A stretch of DNA of 64,000 nucleotides from NCBI GenBank assembly GCA_031409275.1, contig JANNXA010000016.1, positions 128,001-192,000 of the forward strand, written 5' to 3'. The notes beneath the pieces are model-generated. The model was given only the letters and a program-made list of their open reading frames with translations. It made no database searches and was not told the origin of the DNA. The DNA is from Planctomycetota bacterium (lineage in GTDB: Bacteria; Planctomycetota; B15-G4; SIAN01). Within the stretch, counting starts at the first letter, position 1. Every line of letters begins with the position of its first letter. Below, one piece after another: positions 24,213 to 41,512 of this stretch. The translations under genes were made by a program, and so were the position numbers.

Positions 24213-26540
24213 ATGTTCGACTCCTTGCTCACGCTGCTCGCGCTGTCGATGCCAACCGATCCACTGCCCCCGCTCCGCCACCACCCGCACGACATCATCG
24301 ACTGCGTCGAGCTCAGCCCCGACTACGGTCGCGATCGCACGTTGTTCGCGACGTCGAATGGAACCATCAATCTGGTGGTGAGGAGCTCCGACGGCGGCGT
24401 CACCTGGCGCGATTCGCGCAGCGGCGTCACGGGTCGCTGCGTCGACGCGATCGCGCTCGACCCGGGCTTCGGGAAGAACGGGCGAGCGTGGGCGGCGCTC
24501 GGCGAGGACGGCCTTGTCGCCAGCGACGATGGCGGCGTTTCATGGCGCGTGATCCCGTCGGGCGGGACCGCCCGCGTGCTGGCGCTGGGCATGCCGCGAA
24601 CGGACGCGACGGGCGATCGCGCCGGGCTGCCGACGCTCTACGTCGGAGGCAGCCACGGCCTGCACTCGATGCTGGCCGATGGCAGCCTGCCGGTGCCCAT
24701 CGCCCCTTCCATCTTCACGAAGCATCCGCCCACCGAGCTCGCGATCACCGCCGACGACACGCTCTTCGTCGCCACCGACAACAGCAGGTTGTGGCGACTC
24801 GACCGCGGGCGCAGGATCACCCGCGTCGCGCGCCTCGAGGCGGTGCGCAAGATCGCGCCGTCGCCCGCCTTTGCGACCGATCGAACCGTGTTCGTCGCCA
24901 CCTTCGGCCGCGGCGTCTGGGTGAGCCGCGACGCGGGCGACACCTTCACGCCGATGAATGACGGACTCGACGACCCGTTCGTGAACGACCTTGCGGTACC
25001 GCGCCGTTTCCCGGAGTGCCGAGAGCTCTTCGCGGTGACGAAAGACGCCGGCCTCTACCGCTTCGTCGACGGCAGCAATCGATGGGAACTCACGACGTTC
25101 GCGGTGCTCGAACGGACGTACCAGACGTCGAACCACCACCTCCAGGTACGGCTGGCTGCCGACTACCCGACGACTCCTGACGTCATCGTCGGGACCTTCG
25201 AAGGCCTCTTCGTCTCCAACGATCGCGCCGTCTTCACCTCGGGTTACGGGATGCTGCTCTCGACGTCGGACGACGCGGGGGAGAACTGGCGGTTCGGGGC
25301 GCGCGACGTGAGGGCGCTCAGCACCTACGCGCTTTCGGTCGCGCCCACCTGGCGCGACGAAGGGCTGATCGTGCTGGGGATCAACGAGGGGATCTGGCGC
25401 TCGCGAGACCGCGGCGCCAGCTTCGCGAAGGTCGACCTGCCGCCTCACCACCGTCTTGACGGTCCGCGCCGCGACCACGACATCTTCCAGGTCGCGTTCT
25501 CGCCCGCGTTCCAGGAGGACCGGACCTGCGCCGCGATCAGCTTCGGAGGCGTCTACGTGTCGAACGACGCTGCCGAGAGCTTCGTCACGACCGCTCCGCC
25601 CTGTGCGTGGCTCAAGGCCATCGCGTTCTCGCCCCTCTTTCCTGCCGACCGGACGATCTTCGTCGGCGGCGAATCGGTGCATCGATCCACGGACGGCGGC
25701 GCCACGTTCGAATCGGCGACGCTCCGAGAGCCGATCGATGGACTGTTGACCGCACGCGACTTCGGCAGTTCACGCCAGCTCTTCGCGATCAGCCGCGACA
25801 GCGGGGTCTTCCGATCCGACGACGGCGGACAACGCTGGACGAAGGCGAACCACGGCCTCGACGGCCATCGCCCATCCGCGATCGCGGAGACCGTCGACGA
25901 GGCGAGCCGCCCGACGCTCTTCCTGGCCACGTTGGGCGGCGGCCTGTTCATCTCGCACGATCGCGGAACGACCTGGCAGCGGCACGGGACACGCGACCAC
26001 CTTCTCCAGCACGTTCTCTCCATCGCGATCTCGCCGGCGTTCAAAGACGACGGGACGCTCTTCATCGGGACGCTCGACGGCGTCTGGCGCTCGCGGGATC
26101 GTGGCGCGACCTTCACCCTTTGCACGCGCCAGGAGGTCTACGACGACAACCGCGAGCCGTGGCAGGCTCGAGGCGGAACGTGGAGCAACTGGGGCCGGCC
26201 AGAGGCTTTCTGCATGACCGCGCACTTCGCGCGAGCGCCCGGCGCCGAGATGGAACTGCCATTCGTCGGCGACGGCGTGAAGCTGCTGATGATGCGAGGC
26301 CCCGAACTCGGCATCTCCGAAGTGCTGCTCGACGGCGCCGTCGTCGCGCGCATCGACCACTACGCGCCCGAGCGGCAGGGCGCCGTGCCGGCGTTCGAAT
26401 CGGCGAATCTGCCCTTCGGATTCCACCGGATCGTCGTGCGCGTCACCGGAGAGAAGAACGCGGCGTCGAGCGGCGTGCTCATCGGTGTCGATGCCGCCGA
26501 AGTGAGCTGCACCGCGCCCGAGCTCAAGTCGGCCCGGTAG
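24213..26540 (+). CDS. Secreted BNR/Asp-box beta-propeller protein with C-terminal carbohydrate-binding-like domain (paralog 1)
   Basis: Many SxDGGxTW boxes and SPxFxxDRT blades; C-terminal jelly-roll-like domain. Confidence 0.8.
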   Translation: MFDSLLTLLALSMPTDPLPPLRHHPHDIIDCVELSPDYGRDRTLFATSNGTINLVVRSSDGGVTWRDSRSGVTGRCVDAIALDPGFGKNGRAWAALGEDGLVASDDGGVSWRVIPSGGTARVLALGMPRTDATGDRAGLPTLYVGGSHGLHSMLADGSLPVPIAPSIFTKHPPTELAITADDTLFVATDNSRLWRLDRGRRITRVARLEAVRKIAPSPAFATDRTVFVATFGRGVWVSRDAGDTFTPMNDGLDDPFVNDLAVPRRFPECRELFAVTKDAGLYRFVDGSNRWELTTFAVLERTYQTSNHHLQVRLAADYPTTPDVIVGTFEGLFVSNDRAVFTSGYGMLLSTSDDAGENWRFGARDVRALSTYALSVAPTWRDEGLIVLGINEGIWRSRDRGASFAKVDLPPHHRLDGPRRDHDIFQVAFSPAFQEDRTCAAISFGGVYVSNDAAESFVTTAPPCAWLKAIAFSPLFPADRTIFVGGESVHRSTDGGATFESATLREPIDGLLTARDFGSSRQLFAISRDSGVFRSDDGGQRWTKANHGLDGHRPSAIAETVDEASRPTLFLATLGGGLFISHDRGTTWQRHGTRDHLLQHVLSIAISPAFKDDGTLFIGTLDGVWRSRDRGATFTLCTRQEVYDDNREPWQARGGTWSNWGRPEAFCMTAHFARAPGAEMELPFVGDGVKLLMMRGPELGISEVLLDGAVVARIDHYAPERQGAVPAFESANLPFGFHRIVVRVTGEKNAASSGVLIGVDAAEVSCTAPELKSAR

Positions 26541-28390: not shown

Positions 28391-30820
28391 TTGAGTTCCA
28401 TCGCATTTGTGCGCATTGCGATCCTAGCGGCCACGATTCCGACGCTGCCCTCGCTGCCGGCCCTCCCTCGCCACCATCCTCACGACATCATCGACTGCGT
28501 TCAGCTCAGCCCACAGTACGGGCACGACCGAACGCTCTTCGCGACCTCCGAAGGGACGATCAACCTCGTGGTTCGCAGCCGCGACGGTGGCACGACATGG
28601 AGCGATGTGCGCAGCGGCATCACCGGCCGCCACGTCTTCTCAATGGCCCTGGCCGACGACTTCCAGACGAGCGGCCTCGCGTGGGCGGCGCTCGGCGAAA
28701 ACGGACTGATCCGCAGCGAGGACGGTGGCTCGAGCTGGACGGTCACGCCCTTCCGCGCCGATTCGCGCCTGCTCGCGCTCGGCCCTCCGGTTCCACAGGC
28801 ACCCGGTCCGATCGGCAAGCAGCCGACCCTCTTCGTCGGCACCAACAAGGGGCTCTTCCGCGTCCTCGCCGACGGCAGCACGGCGCGCCCGCTCGGCGCC
28901 GACACGTTCCAGCGCAAGAACATCCCCCAACGGATGGTCGTTGCCAACGATGGGACGCTCTTCGTCTACAGCGCCGACGGCACGTTGTGGCGCAGTCGCG
29001 ACGACGGCGAGGTCTTCACGCGCCTGTGTCGGCCGGGCGACGTCCGGGCAATCGTCCCGTCGCCGACCTACATGAAGGACCAGACGCTCTTCGTGGCCAC
29101 CTTCGGCGCTGGCATCCTGGTCAGCCGCAATCGCGGCGCCACGTTCGAACCGATGAATCGCGGTCTCGACGACCTGATGGTGAATGACCTCGCGATTCCC
29201 AAGCGGTGGCCCGACTGCCAGGAGATGTTCGCCGTCACCAAGGACGCCGGCCTGTTCCGCTCGGTCGATGGCGGTCGCAACTGGCAGCTCACGCCATTCG
29301 CGGTGATCGAGAAGACCTACCAGACCACCAACCACCATCTGCACGTTCGGCTCCCCGCGGACTATCCGCAGACGCCCGACGTCGTGGTCGGAACCTACGA
29401 GGGGCTGTTCGTCTCGAAGGACCGCGGCGCGACTTTCCTGAAGAGCAACATCAACCCGACGCGCATCGGCCGTCGGCTCGCGATCTCGCCCGACTTCGCC
29501 GATGACGCAACCGTGTTCACTTCGGGCTACGGGATGCTGCTCTCCATCTCGAATGACGCCGGCAAGAGCTGGGACTTCAGCGCGCGCGACGTCAACGCTC
29601 TGAGCACCTACGCGCTGGCCGTCGCGCCTACATGGCGGACCGAGGGGCTGATCGTACTGGGCGTCAACGAAGGGGTCTGGAGCTCACGCAACCGCGGCGC
29701 GAGCTGGAACCTGGTGCGACTCGACCCGTTCGCTCGGCCCGACGGTCCGCGCCAGGACCACGACATCTTCCAGTTCGCCTTCTCGCCCGCATTCGCCACC
29801 GACCGCACCTGCTTCGGCGTGAGCTTCGGCGGTGTCTACGTCTCGAACGACGCGGCCGCCTCATTCGAGACGCGCGCGCCGCCCAGCCGTTGGCTGAAGG
29901 CGCTGGCGGTGTCACCCAACTTCGCCGAGGACAAGACCTTCTTCGTCGGGGGCGAGATGATCCATCGCTCCGTCGATGGAGGACTGACGTTCGAAGGGCC
30001 GCTGCTCACGGGGTCGATCGACGGAATGCTGTGCGCTCAGGACTTCAAGACGTCACGGCTCGCCTTCGCCGTGAGCCGCAAGGACGGCGTGTTTCGATCG
30101 AGCGACGGTGGCGACAGCTGGAAGCCCGCGAACGACGGCCTGAACGGCCACCGACCGACGACGATCCAGGGCACCGTCGACTCCGACGGCAAGTACGTCC
30201 TCTTCGTCGGCACGCTGGGCGGAGGGATCCACCGTTCGCGCGATCGCGGCCTCACTTGGGAGCGATTCGGGCGCAAGGATCCGCACCTGCAGAACGTGCT
30301 CTCGCTGGCCTTCTCGCCGAAGTACCGCGAAGACGGGACCTTCTTCGCCGGCGCGCTCGACGGTGTGTGGCGATCGACCGATCGCGGGCAGACCTTCGCG
30401 CTCACGACCCAGCGCGAGATCTACGACAACATGCGCGAGCCGTGGCAGCACTCGAGCGGCAAGTGGGAACGCTACGGCCGCGAAGGCGCGCACCAGGGAA
30501 TGGCCGACATGGCGCGCCGCGCCGGCGCCACGATGACCCTGCCGTTCGTCGGCTCGAAGGTCGAGCTGCTCACGACCCGCGGCCCCGACCATGGCATGGC
30601 CGAAGTCCTCCTCGACGGGGTGGTCGTGAGCGAGTTCGATGGCTACTCCGCGCAGCCCGAAGGTGCCGTCCCGATCTTCGCGAGCGCGGAACTGCGCTTT
30701 GGCGCGCATGTCCTTGCAGTGCGCGTGCTCGGAAAGAAGCGCGAAGCCTCGAGCGACGTGCTCGTCGGCGTCGACGCGGCGATCGTCTGGTGCACTGATC
30801 CAGCGCTGCTGCGTCCGTGA
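28391..30820 (+). CDS. Secreted BNR/Asp-box beta-propeller protein (paralog 2)
   Basis: Colinear with 24213-26540 (RHHPHDIIDCV, YQTTNHHL, DHDIFQ). Confidence 0.8.
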   Translation: MSSIAFVRIAILAATIPTLPSLPALPRHHPHDIIDCVQLSPQYGHDRTLFATSEGTINLVVRSRDGGTTWSDVRSGITGRHVFSMALADDFQTSGLAWAALGENGLIRSEDGGSSWTVTPFRADSRLLALGPPVPQAPGPIGKQPTLFVGTNKGLFRVLADGSTARPLGADTFQRKNIPQRMVVANDGTLFVYSADGTLWRSRDDGEVFTRLCRPGDVRAIVPSPTYMKDQTLFVATFGAGILVSRNRGATFEPMNRGLDDLMVNDLAIPKRWPDCQEMFAVTKDAGLFRSVDGGRNWQLTPFAVIEKTYQTTNHHLHVRLPADYPQTPDVVVGTYEGLFVSKDRGATFLKSNINPTRIGRRLAISPDFADDATVFTSGYGMLLSISNDAGKSWDFSARDVNALSTYALAVAPTWRTEGLIVLGVNEGVWSSRNRGASWNLVRLDPFARPDGPRQDHDIFQFAFSPAFATDRTCFGVSFGGVYVSNDAAASFETRAPPSRWLKALAVSPNFAEDKTFFVGGEMIHRSVDGGLTFEGPLLTGSIDGMLCAQDFKTSRLAFAVSRKDGVFRSSDGGDSWKPANDGLNGHRPTTIQGTVDSDGKYVLFVGTLGGGIHRSRDRGLTWERFGRKDPHLQNVLSLAFSPKYREDGTFFAGALDGVWRSTDRGQTFALTTQREIYDNMREPWQHSSGKWERYGREGAHQGMADMARRAGATMTLPFVGSKVELLTTRGPDHGMAEVLLDGVVVSEFDGYSAQPEGAVPIFASAELRFGAHVLAVRVLGKKREASSDVLVGVDAAIVWCTDPALLRP

Positions 30821-32458: not shown

Positions 32459-33670
32459 ATGAAGATCGCCCTCCTCTCCTACGAGTACCCACCCGAGACC
32501 GGCTTCGGCGGGATCGGCACGTACGCGTGGTACCAGGCGCGGGCGCTCGCGAAGCTCGGCCACGAGGTGCACGTCCTTTCGGGCGCCACCGAAGTCACGC
32601 CGCTGCGCAGTTCCGCGCACGACGGTCTCACCGTCTTTCGCTATCGCGCCGGCGGCGGCTTCATGAAGGCGCTGAAGCGCCTCGACAAGCACAAGCTCTG
32701 GTGGACGAAGAATCGCATCGAGAACGGCTGGTGCATGCACCTCGGATTGAAGGAGCTGCGCCGCCGCTTCAGCTACGACGTGGTCGAGATGCCGGAGTGC
32801 GGCGGCGAGGGGCTGCTGCTCAACTGGCTGCAGCGCGCGAAGACCGTGATCAAGTTCCACTCGCCGGCGCAGCTGATCATGCCGACCTACGACGTGCGAA
32901 AGGCCGACCACCTCGCGTGCTCGTTCGTCGAGAAGCTGGCGATTCGCGGGGCGGACGCGTTCACCTCCTGCAGCCAGTTCCTCGCCGATGAGGTGCGCAC
33001 GAAGATGGGCGTGCGGCGACCCATCAAGGTGGTCGCCAACGGCATCGACCTCGATCTCTTCGACGCCGAACAGCAGATCGACGCGCGCGCCAAGTTCGGG
33101 CTGCCCGCCGGCAAACCGGTCATCTTCTTCGCCGGCCGCATGGAGAAGCGCAAAGGGATCCATCTCTGCCCCGAGATCTGCGAGACGATCCTGAAGAAGC
33201 ACGACGTCGCCTTCGCCTTCGCCGGCAGCGACCTGTTCGGCTTCATGGAGAAGGAACTGCTGCCGCGGATCAAGGGCCAGACCTTGAAGGGCTCGGTCCA
33301 CTACCTCGGCAAGCTCACCTTGCAGGAGGTCGGCTCCTGCCTGCGCCAGAGCGACATCTACTTCATCCCCAGCCTCTGGGAGAACTGCCCGTACTCGTGC
33401 CTCGAGGCGATGGCGGCCGGCCGCGCCATCGTCGCCAGCGACGCGGGAGGATTGCCCGAGCTGATCCGCGACGGCGAGAACGGATTGATCGCGAAGAGCG
33501 GGGAGGCTGCCGGTTTCGCCAGCGCGATCGAGCGCCTCATCGAGGACGCGCCGCTGCGCGCACGTCTCGGAGCCGCGGCGCGCCGCACCGTCGAGGAGCG
33601 CTATACCGACGTCGGAATCGCGCAGCAGTCGCTCGACTGCTGGAAGCAGGCGCTGCAGCTGGGAGCTTGA
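32459..33670 (+). CDS. Glycosyltransferase family 4
   Basis: EYPPETGFGGIGTY, GRMEKRKG, PSLWENCPYSCLEAMA. Confidence 0.92.
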   Translation: MKIALLSYEYPPETGFGGIGTYAWYQARALAKLGHEVHVLSGATEVTPLRSSAHDGLTVFRYRAGGGFMKALKRLDKHKLWWTKNRIENGWCMHLGLKELRRRFSYDVVEMPECGGEGLLLNWLQRAKTVIKFHSPAQLIMPTYDVRKADHLACSFVEKLAIRGADAFTSCSQFLADEVRTKMGVRRPIKVVANGIDLDLFDAEQQIDARAKFGLPAGKPVIFFAGRMEKRKGIHLCPEICETILKKHDVAFAFAGSDLFGFMEKELLPRIKGQTLKGSVHYLGKLTLQEVGSCLRQSDIYFIPSLWENCPYSCLEAMAAGRAIVASDAGGLPELIRDGENGLIAKSGEAAGFASAIERLIEDAPLRARLGAAARRTVEERYTDVGIAQQSLDCWKQALQLGA

Positions 33671-33671
33671 G

Positions 33672-36600
33672 ATGGGCGTCCTGCACATCGAAGGCGAACC
33701 CGAGCGCGACCTGTCCCGTGAAGCCTACGACCTGACGCGCCGCCTCCTGCTCGAGCCGAAGGCGGTCTGCCACGCGCCCTTCGGTGCGCTCCACCTCGGC
33801 GACCAGCTGCGGCAGTGTCGCCACGGCGCCGCGGACCTCGGCGATCCGCGCAGGACCACGCTGGCCCAGGCGTTCTCTGGCGTGCCGGCGGACCAGCTGC
33901 GCGAACGATTCCAGCGCTACCTCGTGCGCCGCGACGAGTGCGCGCGCTGCGTCGGCGACTGGGAGGATGGTGCCGCGGCCGAGAGCCCGGCGCTGCGCGA
34001 ATACGACGATGCGCTGCCGCCGGTGAACGGGCTGCCCCCGCAGCTGCGCGCGTTGTCGATCGACGCGAGCGGCGAGCTGCCCGCGGCTCGGCTCGCCGAA
34101 GTGCGCGAGCTCATGCCGCAGCTCGACCATCTGACCCTGATCTGCACGACGCTCGAACGCGGCACGCGCGCCGCTTCGCTCGCCAGCGAGCTCGACTCCT
34201 TGCGCAGCCGCGGTCGACCCAGGCTGCGAATCATCGCGCGCGGCTTCGTGCCGGAAGCCGCCGCCATCCCGCCGGGCGCGAGCGAGGTCGAGGTCGACCT
34301 GCCACTCACGGCCCCTCCACTCGACGCGCCGCAGCAGGAACGGCTCGCCGACCTCGCCGACGATCTGCGCGAACGCAAGGCGTCTCTGTCCGTGCAGTGC
34401 GAGATCGGGTGCTCCACGTGGAGCGCGCTGCGCGGCTGGCTCAGCCGCTGCGGAGCGTGCGGCGCGGCGGCGGCGCCGCTGCTGGTTCCGCGCGGCACGG
34501 ACGACTCGCTCGCGGCGCTCGACCCCGACCTGCTCGCGGTCCTGCACGGGATCTTCTTCCGTTGGGGCGTCGAGAGCGGCATCGCCGCCGAGGCGCAGCA
34601 CGGTGAGCCTTCGCAACGCGCCTTGCTGAATCGGCTGCGCGAGTGGCAGCGCGCCAGCGCCAGCGCCGCGACCAGCGGCAACGCGTCGCTCGATCTCCCG
34701 GCGCCCGACTTCAGCGAAGAGGGAGAGGCGCGGCGGCTCCTGCAAGACCTCCTTCGCGCCTACCACCATCCGCAGATCGAGCGCTGGCTGCGGGCGCTGG
34801 TGCAGGCCGATGGTTTCGTGGGCGCCGCGCGCGAACGGTTGAGCTTGCGCCTGGTCACGCTCTGGCTCGCCAACGTTTTCGAGCGCCACGAGATGGCCTC
34901 GCTGCTGCGCGACATCTACCGCGATGCCGAGGCGGCGCTGACGCAGATCGCCGCCGATCGCGCCACGCTGGCGCAATCGCCGCTGGCGAGCTGGCACGAC
35001 AACTGGATCGCCGCACTCGCGCTCGAACGCCCGCCGCGCAGCGCCACACCGTTCCAGATCGCGCCGGCTGCCGCGCCGACCTCCCGGCACGCGCAAGTGA
35101 CCGTGATCATCCCCTCGTACAACCACGAGCACTTCATCGGCCAGGCGATCGACAGCGCGTTGGCGCAGAGCGGACCGGGCGTGCGCGTGCTGGTCGTCGA
35201 CGACGACTCGACGGACGCCACCGTCGCGGTGGCGCGCCAGCGACGCGACCCGCGACTGCTGGTGCGACGCAACTCGCGCAACCTCGGCCTCGGCGAGAGC
35301 CTGCTGCGCGCGCTGCGAATCGTGCGCACGCCGTTCGTGGCCATCCTCAACTCCGACGACTTCTTCCATCCCGAGCGCATCGAGAAGCTGCTGGGCGCGT
35401 TGAAGCAGTCGCCGCGCGCCACCGTCGCCGCCTCGCTGGTGGTGCCCGTCGACACGCAGGGGCGCACGCTGACGCTCGCCGACGCCTCGCCGATCTTCGA
35501 CGGCAAGCGCATCCACGATTGGCTCTCCTGGTGGAGCCACGCCGGCACGCCACCGACCGACGGCGACCTGCTCGGTCCGCTGTTCGAGCGCAACTGGCTG
35601 ATCACTTCGAGCAACCTGGTCTGTCGGCGCGACTTCCTTCTGCGCAACGCGCGACTCTGGCGCGACCTCGAGTACTGCGTCGATTGGCAGCTCTTCCTCG
35701 CCGCCGCCGCCGAGGGCGGCCTGCGGGTGGTCGCGGAGCCGCTGCTGGGCTACCGGCTGCACGCCAGCAACACCGTCTGGTTCGACACCGAACGCAGCTG
35801 GCGCTTCTACGTCGAGTCGCATCGCGTCGTCGCGCGCGCGCTCGAACAACGGCTGCGGACCGATCGATCGCCGCCGAAGGACCGTTTCGAAGCCCACCTC
35901 GAACTGGTCGCGCGCCATGTCGCCGCGAACCCCGACGCCGACTGGGCCGGGATCTGGCTCGGCCAGATGCTCGAACGGCTGAAGATCCCGTCGCGCGCAT
36001 TGCGACTCGGCAAGAGCCGCCCGCTGATCGAGGTCCTCGAACGGCTGCGGGAGCTCCGCCTGAACGCACGCGACGTCGCGGCGGCCGTCGGTGACCGGCT
36101 CGCATGGTTCCATCGCATGCGCGGCGAGGAGCCCTACCTGCGCTCGGAGCGCAGCAGGGCCGAGGCGCTCGCCTCCGAGTTGTCGCGTCTGCACGGCGAA
36201 CTGCACGGCACGCTGCTCGACCGCCGCAACGTCGAGAAGCTGTGGCACCAGGCCGAGCGCGAGCGCGACGCGGAGATCACCGGGAAGAGCGAGCTCTATC
36301 AGCGGTTCGACGCGCTGAACGGCGAAGTCGAACACGCAACGCGCGAGCGCGACGCGGTGAAGCAGGCGGCGGCGGCGGCGCGCGACGAAGCCGCGACGGC
36401 TGCCGCGACGGCCGCCGCTGCAGCCGCCGCTGCCGCCGCTGCAGCCGCCGCAGCGCTCGCTCGCGCGCGCGAGGAACAGGCACACGCGATCGCGCGGGAA
36501 CGTGCCGTTGCCGAGGATCGCTTCCTGGCCGAGCAGGCGAATGCCGCAGCCAGGAGCGTCGCACTCGAACAGCAGGCGCAGCGGGAACGTGGCGAACTCG

Positions 36601-38249
36601 AACAGCTAGCACAACGGGAGCGTCGCGAACTCGAACAGCGCGCGCGAAAGGAACGTCTCGAACTCGAGCAGCGCGCGCGACAGGAACTCGACGAACTCGA
36701 GCAGCGCGCGCGACAGGAGCGCGAGGAGTTCGAACGCAACGAGCAGGCGCTCGCCGCGAACCTCGCCCGACTCGAGGGCGAGCTCGCCCAGCAGAAGTCG
36801 CTCTCCCACCAGCGCACTGCCGAGCGCGACGCCCTGCTGCGCACTCCCGAGTACCGCTTCGGCCACCTCGCGCTCAACAAGCTGCCGCTGAAGCAGCCGC
36901 TGCGCTTCCTCGAGAAGAAGGCCTCCAAGGCGAGGGCGGTCTGGAACGGCAAGCGCCTCGCGCTCGAGCGCCGGAGCGGCAAGCCGCGCGTCTTCGCGAC
37001 CATCTGCTGGAACTTCCCGATCTACTCGCAGACCTTCGTCTACCAGGAGCTGCTGCAGCTCGAGAGGCGCGGGTTCGACGTGCGCGTCGTCTACAGCAAA
37101 CTCGATCCGAAGGACCGCCTGCATCAGCAGTTCGAGAAGCTCTGGGACCTGAAGCGGCCGATGCACCTCGACCGCGTGGTCCACGAGTCCGATTTCCGTC
37201 TCTTCAAGGCGCGCTTCCCGGACCGGGTCGAGCGCCTCACGCAGCGGCTGTGCGCCGCTTCGGGCCTCGCGCGCGAGCAGCTCGAGCAGCACGACAACTT
37301 CCTGCAGGGATTCACCTACGCGCGCCTCGCTGAGGCATGGGGCGCCGAGTACCTCCACTCCTACTTCTTCTACGATCGCTCGCTGATGTCGCTGATCGCG
37401 GGCGAGGTGCTCCAGCTGCCGCACGGCGTGTCGTGCTACGCCGATCACGTGATGAAGGACTACGAGCTGAAGGTGGTGCCGCTGCACCTCGAGACGTGCG
37501 ACGTCGTCGTCGCCACTTCGCATCGCATCAAGCGCGAACTGCTGGCGCTGGCGCCCGATACGCCCGAGTCGCGGATCCTGGTCAAGCCCAACGCGATCGA
37601 CTGCACCCGCTTCCCGGTGCTGCCACGACCCGAGCCGCACCCTGGCCAGCCGTTCCGCCTCGTGGTCACCAGCCGCATCGAACCGAAGAAGGGGCTGATC
37701 TACCTGGTCGAGGCGGTGCACCTGCTGCGCGGCGCGGGCATCGACGTCGAGGCGCACTTCGTCGGCGACGCGGATCACGGCGTGCCCGCGTCGGAGAACT
37801 GCAAGGCCGAGTTGTGCGCCCGGATCGAAGCGCTCGGCCTTTGGGGCAAGGTCCATCTCGAAGGACGCCAGCCCGAGCAGAAGGTGCGCCACTTCCTCTC
37901 GATCGCCCACCTCTTCGTGGCGCCGTTCATCGAGACCGAGAGCGGCGACAAGGACGGCATTCCGACCGCATTGATCGAGGCGCTCGCGACCGGCCTGCCG
38001 GCGGTGGTCACCGATTCCGGCTCGATCCTCGAGGTGGTCGACGACCGCGTCGATGCGCGCGTCGTGCCGCAACGCGACCCGCGCGCGCTCGCCATCGCGA
38101 TCCGCGAACTGCTGCAGGACCCGTCCGGCCGTCGCTTCATGGCGATCAAGGCGGCGCAGAAGGCGCGCGAGAAGTTCGACGTCTCCGTGTGCGAACCGTG
38201 GTTCCACGAGCGCGTGCGCGCGGCGCTGGCCGCGCGACGCAAGGCATGA
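33672..38249 (+). CDS. Multidomain glycosyltransferase: Cys-rich SPASM-like N-terminus, GT2, coiled coil, GT4
   Basis: VIIPSYNHEHFI, VDDDSTD, LNSDD (GT2); SQTFVYQE, RIEPKKG, DGIPTALIEALA (WcaL-like GT4). Confidence 0.85.
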   Translation: MGVLHIEGEPERDLSREAYDLTRRLLLEPKAVCHAPFGALHLGDQLRQCRHGAADLGDPRRTTLAQAFSGVPADQLRERFQRYLVRRDECARCVGDWEDGAAAESPALREYDDALPPVNGLPPQLRALSIDASGELPAARLAEVRELMPQLDHLTLICTTLERGTRAASLASELDSLRSRGRPRLRIIARGFVPEAAAIPPGASEVEVDLPLTAPPLDAPQQERLADLADDLRERKASLSVQCEIGCSTWSALRGWLSRCGACGAAAAPLLVPRGTDDSLAALDPDLLAVLHGIFFRWGVESGIAAEAQHGEPSQRALLNRLREWQRASASAATSGNASLDLPAPDFSEEGEARRLLQDLLRAYHHPQIERWLRALVQADGFVGAARERLSLRLVTLWLANVFERHEMASLLRDIYRDAEAALTQIAADRATLAQSPLASWHDNWIAALALERPPRSATPFQIAPAAAPTSRHAQVTVIIPSYNHEHFIGQAIDSALAQSGPGVRVLVVDDDSTDATVAVARQRRDPRLLVRRNSRNLGLGESLLRALRIVRTPFVAILNSDDFFHPERIEKLLGALKQSPRATVAASLVVPVDTQGRTLTLADASPIFDGKRIHDWLSWWSHAGTPPTDGDLLGPLFERNWLITSSNLVCRRDFLLRNARLWRDLEYCVDWQLFLAAAAEGGLRVVAEPLLGYRLHASNTVWFDTERSWRFYVESHRVVARALEQRLRTDRSPPKDRFEAHLELVARHVAANPDADWAGIWLGQMLERLKIPSRALRLGKSRPLIEVLERLRELRLNARDVAAAVGDRLAWFHRMRGEEPYLRSERSRAEALASELSRLHGELHGTLLDRRNVEKLWHQAERERDAEITGKSELYQRFDALNGEVEHATRERDAVKQAAAAARDEAATAAATAAAAAAAAAAAAAAALARAREEQAHAIARERAVAEDRFLAEQANAAARSVALEQQAQRERGELEQLAQRERRELEQRARKERLELEQRARQELDELEQRARQEREEFERNEQALAANLARLEGELAQQKSLSHQRTAERDALLRTPEYRFGHLALNKLPLKQPLRFLEKKASKARAVWNGKRLALERRSGKPRVFATICWNFPIYSQTFVYQELLQLERRGFDVRVVYSKLDPKDRLHQQFEKLWDLKRPMHLDRVVHESDFRLFKARFPDRVERLTQRLCAASGLAREQLEQHDNFLQGFTYARLAEAWGAEYLHSYFFYDRSLMSLIAGEVLQLPHGVSCYADHVMKDYELKVVPLHLETCDVVVATSHRIKRELLALAPDTPESRILVKPNAIDCTRFPVLPRPEPHPGQPFRLVVTSRIEPKKGLIYLVEAVHLLRGAGIDVEAHFVGDADHGVPASENCKAELCARIEALGLWGKVHLEGRQPEQKVRHFLSIAHLFVAPFIETESGDKDGIPTALIEALATGLPAVVTDSGSILEVVDDRVDARVVPQRDPRALAIAIRELLQDPSGRRFMAIKAAQKAREKFDVSVCEPWFHERVRAALAARRKA
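36564..36728 (+). repeat. Five tandem 33-bp coding repeats (LEQxAxxExxE); a 15-codon poly-Ala tract lies upstream at 36411-36455
   Basis: CTCGAACAG/CTCGAGCAG recurring at a 33-bp period. Confidence 0.85.
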
Positions 38250-38262
38250 GCGCGGGCGTGGC

Positions 38263-39153
38263 ATGGCGCGCCTGACCTTCTGCGTCCCGACCTGGAACGG
38301 CGCGCCGTTCATCGAGCGGACGCTCGCTGCCCTGCTGGCAGTCGACGGCGCCGCGCTCGAGGTGATCGTCGGCGACGATGCGTCCGACGACGGCAGCGCC
38401 GATCTGGCGCAGCGCTTCGCGCGCGAGCGCCGGGACGCTCGCGTCCGCGTCCACCCCTTCCGCGAGCGGCTCGGTCTGGCCGGCAACTGGAACCGGACGT
38501 TGCGCCTCGCGCGCGGCGATTACGTCTGCCTGTTCGGGCAGGACGACCTCTGCCACCCGGACTTCGCGCAGCGTCTGGTCGGCCGCCTCGAACGCCACCG
38601 CGACTGCGCGCTCGCCTTCGGCCGCCGCGACTTCGTGATCGCCGACGAGCCAAGCCGCGCCGCGATGGGCGACTTCTTCGAGCGGCGCTACCCCGAGATG
38701 ATGCGGCCCTTCGAGGCGCACGTGCAGGCGCTCGGCGAGGTGATTCCGGCGCGCGTGATGCTGGACGAAGCGTTGCGCTTCCGCTTCGAGATCAACCTGA
38801 TCGGCGAGCCGAGCTTCGCGGTGTTCCGGCGCGACCATCCGGCGGTCGCCGTCGGCTTCGACGAGCAGATGCAGCAGATGATCGACTGGGAGTTCTTCAC
38901 GCGCTTCTTCGCCGAGGCACCGGTCGCTCGCTGCCATGACACGATCGGCAGCTACCACGTCCACGCGCGCGGTTCGTCGCTCGCGAACGCGAAGCTGTCG
39001 CGCCACTACCGCGAGTTCGACCACCTGCTGGGCGTCGTGCTGGAGCGGTTCGCTGCGACGCTGACCGCGATCGATCGCGGCGCGCTCGAGGAACGGCGCA
39101 ACGAGGCGCGCCGCCTCGCGCTCGAGCATGCCGCGCAGGAGGCTCGCTCATGA
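38263..39153 (+). CDS. Glycosyltransferase family 2
   Basis: CVPTWNG, GDDASDD, GLAGNWN, GQDD, NLIGEPS, IDWEF. Confidence 0.9.
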   Translation: MARLTFCVPTWNGAPFIERTLAALLAVDGAALEVIVGDDASDDGSADLAQRFARERRDARVRVHPFRERLGLAGNWNRTLRLARGDYVCLFGQDDLCHPDFAQRLVGRLERHRDCALAFGRRDFVIADEPSRAAMGDFFERRYPEMMRPFEAHVQALGEVIPARVMLDEALRFRFEINLIGEPSFAVFRRDHPAVAVGFDEQMQQMIDWEFFTRFFAEAPVARCHDTIGSYHVHARGSSLANAKLSRHYREFDHLLGVVLERFAATLTAIDRGALEERRNEARRLALEHAAQEARS

Positions 39154-41027
39154 GCGGCGCGCGCGGGCCGGCCGTGGCGTGCGCGCTCCTCGTCGCGCTG
39201 CTGGTCGGCGCAGCCACCGCCTTGCGCATCTCGATCACCCACGCGCAGCCCGGCTGGGATCGCACCTCGCCGGTCGGCCTGCTGAAGAGCGATCCGGCGC
39301 TCCTCTATTGGTTCACCGAACGCCACGCTGCAGATGCCAGCGCATCGAACGACGACCTCGCCGCGACCACCTCGGTGCAGTGGCCCGACCCCATCGATGC
39401 GCGCGTCGAGTTCCCGCAACTGCAGATGCAACTCGCGGCGATGACGTGGCGGTGGTTTGGCGCCGGGATGCCGCTGCACGAGTGGTGCGTGCTGCTCTTC
39501 TCGCTGCTCGCCGCGACCGCGCTTTGGGGCGTCTTCGGCCTCGCGCACGAGCTGACCGGGCGTCGCGACCTGGCACTGGCCGCGACCGCCGCCGCCTTCC
39601 TGCTGCCGGCGACGTGGCGCACCGCGAGCTTCGTGCTGCTGGGAGAGGACGTCGCGCTGCCGGCCCTGGCGTTCCACTTCTGGCTCGCAGCGCGCGCCGC
39701 CCGATTGCGTACGCCGGCCGCCTTCCTGCTGGCGGGGCTGCCGTTGGCCATCGCCATGGCGGCCTGGCACGCCACCGGGTTCTTCGTCGCCATCGAAGCC
39801 GGCGCCTTCTTCCTTTGGTACCTGCGCAGCGGAGCCAACCCCTTCTCGGTGGCGCGCGCGTGGCTCGTGCTGCTGCCCTTCGCGCTTGCCTGCGCAGTCG
39901 AGCCGATGCTTCGTGGCAAGCTGCAACTCCTCTCGCTGCCGATGCAGATCGCGCTGGCGCTGCTGCTGATGGCGGCGATCGAGTCGCGGCGAAAGCTGGC
40001 CTTTGCAACACGGATCGGCGCCGCGCTCGCGCTGGTGGCGGCGGGCGCCGGTCTCGCCTGGCTCGCGGCGCGCCTGATGGGCGGCGGCATCGGCGACTAC
40101 TCGCACGTGTTCCGGCTGCTGCTCTGCAAGCTGCGCTACCTCGGCGAGTTCCCCGCCGATCCCAACGAACTGCCCTTCGAGGTCCGCATCCTCTGGCAGG
40201 GTCCCTTCGACACCACACAACTCGGCGCGCTGCTGAAGAACCTCTCGGCTCCGCTCTTCGTCGGCCTGCTCGGCGTCGCGTTCGCGCTGCCGGCATGGCG
40301 ACGTGGCACCACGGTCGAGGCGGTCGAGCGCGCGCGGGCCGTGCTGGCGCCCGCCGTGCTGGTGGCGCTGCTGGCGTCGTGGCTCATCCAGCGCACGCTC
40401 GTGCTTTCGGCACTGCTCTTCCCGGTCGCCGCCGTAATCGCGATCGAGACGCTCGCCTCGTGCGCTGCGGTCGCGAATTGCCGCTTCGTGCGGGGGGGTC
40501 TCGTGGCGCTGCTGCTGCTGGTGCCGGCGGCGCAATTCCCCGAGTTCGTCCGTTTCGTCGAGCAGAAGAACCGCTGGTACGAGCCGCGCCACAGCGCCGA
40601 GATCCGCGCGGCGGTGGAAGTGATCTCGAAGCTCGTGCCGCCGGGCGAGGCGGTGGCCAGCGACGAGATCAACTCGACCGCGATGCTGGCCCACACCGGC
40701 CACCCGATCCTGGTGCAGCCGAAGTACGAGTCGACGGCGGCGCGCGAACGGCTCGAGGAGTACCGCACCGCAGCGACGCGCGGCACGCCGGCCGAGCTCG
40801 CCGACTTCCTGCGCCGCCACCGATGCCGCTATCTGCTATTCGACTGGTTCCAGCTGTTCGCGACGCGCTACCAGGCGGGGCTGCGTTACGACAGCAACGA
40901 GATGGACGGCGACAGCGCGCTCGCGATCACCTACCAGACGCCAGCGGCGCTTCCCGGGTTCAAGCTGCTCTGGCGCAGCGGCGGGCCGCGCGACGGAATG
41001 CGTCTCTACGTGCTCGAATCACCCTGA
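39150..41027 (+). CDS. GT-C fold membrane glycosyltransferase, DPY19-like
   Basis: About 11-13 TMs plus a C-terminal soluble domain; [44 protein letters not shown]. Confidence 0.7.
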
Positions 41028-41512
41028 CGGAAGCGGTCGAGCACTTTCTGGTTCTGCGCGAGGAACGCCTCGGCCCAGTGGTAGCGATCGAGCAACCCGG
41101 CGGTGTCGCGGCGCAGCATGGTGAATGCGGCGTAGATCGCCTCGATCGTGGCGAGCCCGTCATCGGGATCGGTGAGCTTCTTCGACATGCGCGGATAGGC
41201 GCTGACCAGCGGCGGCAGCGAGCGCACCGGCAGCTCGGCGTAGAGGCGTTCCATTCGCGGCGCCAGGCGCCACGTCGAGTCGATCACCAGCAGCCCCGCC
41301 TCCGCGTCCGCGACCGAGAGCTGCGGCCCGCCGATTCCCAACCGGACGTAGGCGTCGAGCGGCTCGCTGCCGCGCTGCGGATAGGGCCAGAAGCAGAACT
41401 CCCGATTCGCGCGGAGCGGTTCGACCGAGCACTTGCGGCGATTCTCGCGCGGATGGACCACGATGATGGTGGGAGGGTGGTTCACGCGGCGCGGCGCGTT
41501 CTCGACGTTCAT
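41006..41512 (-). CDS. DUF367/Tsr3-like aminocarboxypropyltransferase family protein
   Basis: [46 protein letters not shown]. Confidence 0.75.

Follow-up and report, generated by a model that had tools for sequence, protein, structure and literature searches.

The tryptophan C-mannosyltransferases DPY-19 of C. elegans (CeDPY19) and DPY19L1-L4 of humans (PF10034, GT98; structures 7ZLG, 7ZLH and 7ZLI), which move mannose from lipid-P-Man to C2 of tryptophan, carry out a modification that, in the available sections of PMC6801728, is described as confined to metazoa and alveolates; section 2.1 of that article defines the EL2 motif as Rx6LRE in DPY19 and as Rx6DNE in STT3. The available portions of a 2026 review (PMC12990085) name no prokaryotic enzyme and contain no prokaryot- or archae- wording, and those of PMC4973528 leave DPY unmentioned. 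We found no paper describing bacterial DPY19 members in the open-licence literature; some members of the family described below are already tagged Dpy19 by automatic databases. For CeDPY19, the available parts of PMC10154233 report that: (i) the E71D variant retains ~80% activity, human DPY19L4 having Asp at the same position; (ii) exclusion of glucose is ascribed to the catalytic Glu71 side chain; and (iii) mutation of Lys473, which is needed for reading the second tryptophan of WxxW, leads to a 90–100% loss of activity.

Here we describe a bacterial protein that very probably belongs to the DPY19 branch of the GT-C glycosyltransferases. Its gene lies at 39150..41027 in a 64,000-nucleotide stretch of a Planctomycetota genome (the window, to which all coordinates refer; + strand unless stated otherwise), and encodes 625 residues with 13 predicted membrane helices and a C-terminal extracytoplasmic dome; the codon usage of the open reading frame is gene-like (GC3 0.90). 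New from the window are a clade with Asp at the position of the catalytic Glu and two findings on the negative side, namely that neither a conserved operon nor a WxxW footprint was detected.

Relation to DPY19

We compared the window protein with known families by profile and by structure. As a single query against the PDB it returned no GT-C match, only a spurious one to uS2m, and NCBIfam returned no family. The initial annotation had suggested weighing Pfam Dpy19 against STT3 and PMT_2; Dpy19 is the sole Pfam match, with no match to PMT_2, but its score of 23.9 bits (E 1.4e-5) lies just below the gathering score of 27.2 bits. The cut-off is narrowly missed by the window protein and reached by the family, as judged by a paralog in the same genome at 54.9 bits and by nine of ten tested relatives that carry Glu at the catalytic position (Glu-type). 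Among 41 aligned members searched against Pfam at E≤1, 38 match Dpy19 (best 5.9e-21), seven match STT3 (best 0.01) and one matches PMT (E 0.31).

Family profiles searched against the PDB with HMMER sharpen the comparison. CeDPY19 ranks first with a 41-row profile (2e-17, versus 6e-4 for STT3A) and again with a 50-row profile (8.7e-35 and 123 bits, versus 1e-16 and 64 bits for STT3A). The AlphaFold2 model (pLDDT 94.7) has 13 membrane helices and a dome, and the three top-ranking Foldseek matches are CeDPY19 structures with TM scores of 0.80–0.81; STT3 proteins reach at most 0.74, AglB at most 0.68 and ArnT 0.37. Structural alignment with VIA-align gives the same order: CeDPY19, Z 31.1, rmsd 3.5 over 594 aligned residues; AglB, Z 27.5, rmsd 4.2 over 574; yeast STT3, Z 27.2; Pmt4, Z 18.3; and ArnT, Z 16.4. 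By profiles and by the whole-chain model the best PDB match is 7ZLG, which bears out the DPY19-like identity given in the initial annotation and leaves no solved structure closer than DPY19 in either the profile or the whole-chain comparison. Sequence identity to CeDPY19 is 13–14%, not above that to STT3 or AglB.

The dome (residues 465–625; 40542..41024) calls for a separate assessment. A profile of the C-terminal domain (73 rows) matches CeDPY19 alone among 177,635 PDB sequences at E≤10 (3.5e-7), but the fold of the isolated dome is tied between DPY19 (Z 14.5), AglB-S2 (Z 14.0) and STT3B (Z 13.6), and Foldseek places AglB-S2 first. In a language-model search with the C-terminal half, STT3/PglB-core clusters (0.95) come ahead of that of eukaryotic Dpy19 (rank 20, 0.92). 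Since the profile matches DPY19 alone but the fold is tied with AglB and STT3, the DPY19 signal of the dome resides in its sequence and not in its fold, and a DPY19-specific dome fold is unsupported. A concern voiced with the initial annotation, that the best hits might be of the ArnT, PMT or AglB type with no DPY19-specific C-terminal domain, is thus answered by the whole chain and the C-terminal profile, both of which favour DPY19, but not by the isolated dome.

Conserved active-site residues

Residues of CeDPY19 described in the available parts of PMC10154233 were mapped onto the window protein through HMMER profile alignments to 7ZLG. The EL1 motif KSDPALLY (39285..39308) places Asp48 at the position of the catalytic Glu71, as had been predicted. 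Arg157 in the EL2 motif R157-x6-L-G-E166-D (39618..39650) corresponds to Arg211, and in AWHATGF (39762..39782) Trp206 corresponds to Trp262, a contact of the donor phosphate and lipid, with Ala in place of Phe264. The EL5 motif (40176..40208) ends at Phe353, which aligns approximately with Phe401, and Tyr395 corresponds to Leu348 or to the invariant Trp349, the register being uncertain by one residue. In IQRTLV (40386..40403), Arg415 corresponds to Arg471 and Leu417 occupies the site of the essential Lys473. The dome contributes the invariant Asp505 and the QPKYE loop, where Pro524 and Tyr526 correspond to Pro576 and Tyr578. The sequence blocks that the initial annotation had likened to DPY19 motifs are all found in order (KSDPALLY, 46–53; VQWPDPID, 76–83; LLGEDVALP, 163–171; AWHATGF, 205–211; YSHVFRLL, 317–324; VASDEINS, 502–509; a ten-residue block at 518–527; and RER, 532–534) and match the 7ZLG alignments, except that the parallel drawn for VQWPDPID is loose.

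Conservation was counted over 155 full-length members out of 206 proteins collected. Asp occupies position 48 in 143 of them, and Glu in the other 12. Throughout the 143 Asp-type members Arg157, Glu166, Trp206, Trp349, Phe353, Arg415, Asp505 and Glu527 are invariant, position 526 is always aromatic, and Pro524 is present in 140; the acidic Asp505, fixed in this clade, is absent from DPY19. The whole family conserves the P-x-aromatic-E loop and the EL5 aromatics, which in DPY19 hold the indole. EL2 comes closer to the DPY19-type layout than to Rx6DNE of STT3: Rx6LGE in the window protein, exactly Rx6LRE in the paralog, and Rx6[LIMV]RE in 91 of 147 members. The position of the STT3 metal-ligand Asp in EL2 is never Asp in the 143 Asp-type members and is V, I, L or M in 141 of them. 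The WWDxG motif of STT3, already reported missing from the window protein, is found in none of the 147 close and none of the 32 distant members (179 sequences).

Three features of DPY19 are not kept. At the Lys473 site, the seven most frequent residues across the 155 members do not include Lys; position 208, equivalent to Phe264, is Ala or Gly in the Asp clade; and no cysteine occupies an invariant or near-invariant column, so that a counterpart of the disulfide between dome and EL5 is not found. Because the window protein falls below the Pfam cut-off and lacks both Lys473 and the disulfide, classifying it among the WxxW C-mannosyltransferases would be unwarranted.

Set beside DPY19 as a whole, the window protein shares the 13 helices and dome and the Rx6-hydrophobic-x-E pattern in EL2, and keeps the equivalents of Glu71 (as Asp), Arg211, Glu220, Trp262, His375, Lys383, Arg393, Phe401, Arg471, Pro576, Tyr578, Glu579 and Arg584; the metal-ligand Asp and WWDxG are missing from both. 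It differs in being bacterial, in the substitutions listed above, in an EL5 one residue shorter between the equivalents of Arg393 and Phe401, and in the additional Asp505. With STT3, AglB and PglB (PF02516, GT66) it shares the overall fold, the EL1 Asp, the EL2 Arg and Glu, and the EL6 Arg, but it has neither WWDxG, nor the Asp of Rx6DNE, nor a match in the C-terminal profile, and the profile scores STT3 about half as high as DPY19. ArnT, PMT and AftD/AftA share the conserved GT-C module, with a much weaker structural match (Z≤18.3). The Asp-Pro pair at EL1 of the window protein, which we take to be an STT3/AglB-like trait, counts against the DPY19 reading.

Genomic context

Upstream of the gene lie a GT4 gene (32459..33670), a gene for a 1525-residue GT2–GT4 fusion (33672..38249) and a GT2 gene (38263..39153), with intergenic gaps of 1 nt (GT4/fusion) and 13 nt (fusion/GT2); the stop codon of the GT2 gene overlaps the ATG of the DPY19-like gene in an ATGA. 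A scan for promoters and terminators gave none above chance. In the fusion, some 470 N-terminal residues with several cysteines have no Pfam match and are followed by the GT2 domain, a coiled stretch rich in Ala, Glu and Arg, and the GT4 domain. A small gene on the - strand (41006-41512) runs head-on into the DPY19-like gene, sharing ~22 nt with the latter's 3' end; its product matches Pfam Ribo_biogen_C (PF04034) and DTW, both above the cut-offs, and the gene is retained at locus L002. Ribo_biogen_C we take to be Tsr3-like.

The initial annotation had treated the GT4, fusion and GT2 genes, coupled to the DPY19-like gene, as one system. Using a simple codon model, we predicted genes around 80 genome loci (the best 80 of 114) and 79 metagenome loci, with an upstream flank of at least 2.5 kb in 68 of the 80. 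The three upstream genes accompany the DPY19-like gene at one of the 80 genome loci and at none of the 79 metagenome loci; homologs of the upstream GT2 and fusion occur, among these loci, at L002 only. A genome of the same genus (G004) retains the layout with upstream GT genes. Neither locus L003, whose product is 58% identical and for which 8 kb upstream was covered, nor the paralog in the same genome has such neighbours. With linkage this rare, a conserved operon was rejected: the family is normally solitary, and the upstream GT genes are a local arrangement. Solitary occurrence would be easier to reconcile with an enzyme of general modification than with the final step of a dedicated glycan locus.

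Neighbours at other loci vary, and include sulfatases, PPIase, MamK-like actin, radical SAM enzymes and other GT-C-like genes; a weakly PMT_2-like GT-C family abuts the gene at seven of the best 80 of 114 genome loci. Sulfatases were considered as partners, being near the gene at 23 of the same 80 loci, at a density of 23.9 per Mb versus backgrounds of 10.0 and 14.6, and at none of the 79 Glu-type loci; a partnership was not adopted, as the loci are related to one another. At L071:1080-2129 a MamK-family actin gene (427.6 bits versus an NCBIfam cut-off of 400) lies directly upstream of the DPY19-like gene, and this family occupies that place at seven of the best 80 of 114 loci. At L118-L120 (G327:C3:2195001-2255000) a Glu-type gene with a TPR tail stands amid at least seven long membrane genes resembling TPR-tailed GT-Cs, alongside repeated small secreted-looking proteins; an Asp-type copy is also present in G327. 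At L045:4761-10870 (Myxococcaceae) the gene lies between a two-component pair and what by eye resembles a prepilin peptidase gene, and a link to pilins is possible.

Sugar-donor supply and acceptor motif

The GT2 of the window bears no resemblance to a lipid-phosphate-sugar synthase. Elsewhere in the genome, GT2s resembling such synthases gave three matches, all below cut-off, and there are a GtrA-family gene and 12 PMT_2 matches that pass the cut-off; at 93% completeness, the genome shows no STT3-family gene that does so. A synthase-like GT2 is found in the examined flank of six of 79 Glu-type loci.

A secreted BNR propeller encoded in the window (paralog 1, 24213..26540) contains WSNW at residue 657, which had been offered as a weak hint of an acceptor. 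We counted WxxW motifs against an expectation from shuffled sequences, with signal peptides assigned from hydropathy by a crude rule. In this genome, the proteins predicted to be secreted contain 158 motifs versus 123 expected (1.28-fold) and cytoplasmic proteins show a 1.03-fold ratio; the value for WxxW with a small +1 residue is only 1.09. In a genome of the same order that is 91% complete and has no match to the family (G035), secreted proteins contain 50 versus 35 (1.43-fold; 2.4 of 5.3 Mb covered). The excess being as large in this relative without the gene, there is no enzyme-specific WxxW footprint between these two genomes. Across three propeller copies the site is WSNW, WERY and WERW, and from this sequence pattern it looks structural. 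Given the equal excess in the relative and the loss of Lys473, the hint from WSNW finds no support, and an acceptor role of the propeller is likewise unsupported. A second secreted BNR propeller (28409-30820, +) is 58% identical to the first, with a sulfatase gene between the two; G004, of the same genus, has a single propeller at the corresponding place.

Proposed reaction and alternatives

We tentatively propose that the window protein is a metal-independent GT-C enzyme that would transfer one sugar from a polyprenyl-phosphate to tryptophan residues of exported proteins, in a sequon other than WxxW. Of the components of this proposal, a protein acceptor is probable; C-linkage to tryptophan is conceivable, and we hold to it with distinctly less confidence. 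The reaction would be an inverting one on the outer side of the inner membrane, acting on unfolded exported proteins, with the donor supplied by one of the synthase-like GT2s elsewhere in the genome and not by the adjacent operon. By analogy with CeDPY19, as described in the available parts of PMC10154233, Arg157 and Arg415 would stabilize the leaving lipid-phosphate without a metal, Asp48 would serve as both acid and base, and Pro524, Tyr526, Phe353 and Trp349 would stack the acceptor indole. The loss of Lys473 makes WxxW an improbable sequon. Since Asp replaces Glu71, to which the exclusion of glucose is ascribed in CeDPY19, and Ala replaces Phe264, mannose is not the only conceivable donor sugar. 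A bolder version, in which bacteria perform tryptophan C-glycosylation of exported proteins with a DPY19-type enzyme, the Planctomycetota Asp clade recognizes a novel sequon and transfers a non-mannose sugar, and eukaryotic DPY19 has the wider bacterial family as its sister group or origin, appears rather unlikely as a whole.

The same scaffold, with a lipid-phosphate-monosaccharide donor, might instead carry out O- or N-transfer to Ser, Thr, Tyr or Asn, with tryptophan chemistry arising only in eukaryotic DPY19. Loss of the Lys that lines the +3 pocket, the extra acidic Asp505 of the Asp clade and a dome fold that is equally AglB-like are consistent with such an enzyme, and the TPR tails of deeper members presumably resemble those of TMTC O-mannosyltransferases, which we count in its favour. 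The family-wide conservation of the indole-holding P-x-aromatic-E loop and EL5 aromatics argues the other way, and Asn chemistry would need WWDxG and the metal-ligand Asp, both absent; we regard transfer to these other residues as somewhat doubtful. If, as with ArnT and AftD, the sugar went to a lipid or a surface polysaccharide, the protein would be an enzyme that decorates the cell envelope. This would fit the transcription unit that it shares with GT4 and GT2 genes in the window, the other GT-C-like membrane genes that adjoin at some loci (such as the PMT_2-like family noted above), and the luminal dome that arabinosyltransferases also have according to the available parts of PMC10154233. 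It is, however, improbable given that ArnT and Aft align far less well (Z≤16.4 versus 31.1), that DPY19 and STT3/AglB, the families closest to it, are all protein-glycosylating, and that no conserved polysaccharide locus surrounds the gene among the best 80 of 114 genome and the 79 metagenome loci. Least likely, and in our judgement very improbable, is the system proposed in the initial annotation, in which the adjacent GTs would build a lipid-linked oligosaccharide for transfer to protein in the manner of an oligosaccharyltransferase: translational coupling in the window, retention of the arrangement at L002 and in G004, and the lack of an STT3-family gene over cut-off in the 93% complete genome speak for it, but the linkage is all but confined to these cases, being absent from L003 and the paralog, and the protein lacks the metal ligands that a pyrophosphate donor would call for.

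A bacterial family with the DPY19 catalytic set makes the existence of bacterial carbon-linked glycoproteins a testable question, and likewise the origin of DPY19 from an STT3/AglB scaffold. The Asp clade, with Asp48, Ala or Gly at 208 and Asp505 fixed, is a natural variant for probing the choice of donor and sequon. Should the acceptor not be tryptophan, the family would still represent a new GT-C specificity.

Family and distribution

A word-indexed search collected 62 proteins, the query included, and a full scan gave 598 representatives at E≤0.001 and 131 at 1e-30. Of 114 confirmed genome loci, the best 80 comprise 64 labelled Planctomycetota and 16 labelled otherwise, for example Myxococcales, Desulfococcus and Acidobacteriota. 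Within the class of the host the distribution is patchy, with a match in three of four other genomes of its family and in none of 25 others. The second copy in the genome, on contig C42, is 42% identical to the window protein and is the paralog that passes the Pfam cut-off.

The deeper Glu-type relatives (P0196, P0214, P0216 and others) are recognizably of the same family, with ~22–33% identity, the same loops and solitary genes. They differ from the window protein in having Glu at position 48 (28 of 29 rows), F, L or V at position 208 and no Asp505, and often carry TPR tails. A quick tree was built from 49 selected rows, each trimmed to 680 residues, with no eukaryotic DPY19 included, rooted on three long STT3-like branches and with one row (P0179) wrongly labelled Asp. 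It places the window protein in an Asp clade of 23 rows that has a long stem (SH-aLRT 100) and lies amid Glu-type lineages. At G006:C51:111664-113772 a homolog is present in two adjoining pieces, suggesting a frameshift or an assembly error. Among the 29 Glu-type rows, eight are without an equivalent of Arg211 and five have Gln for Glu220 (alignment A4: P0217, P0221, P0222, P0225-P0228), sequence changes hinting at altered specificity in these members.
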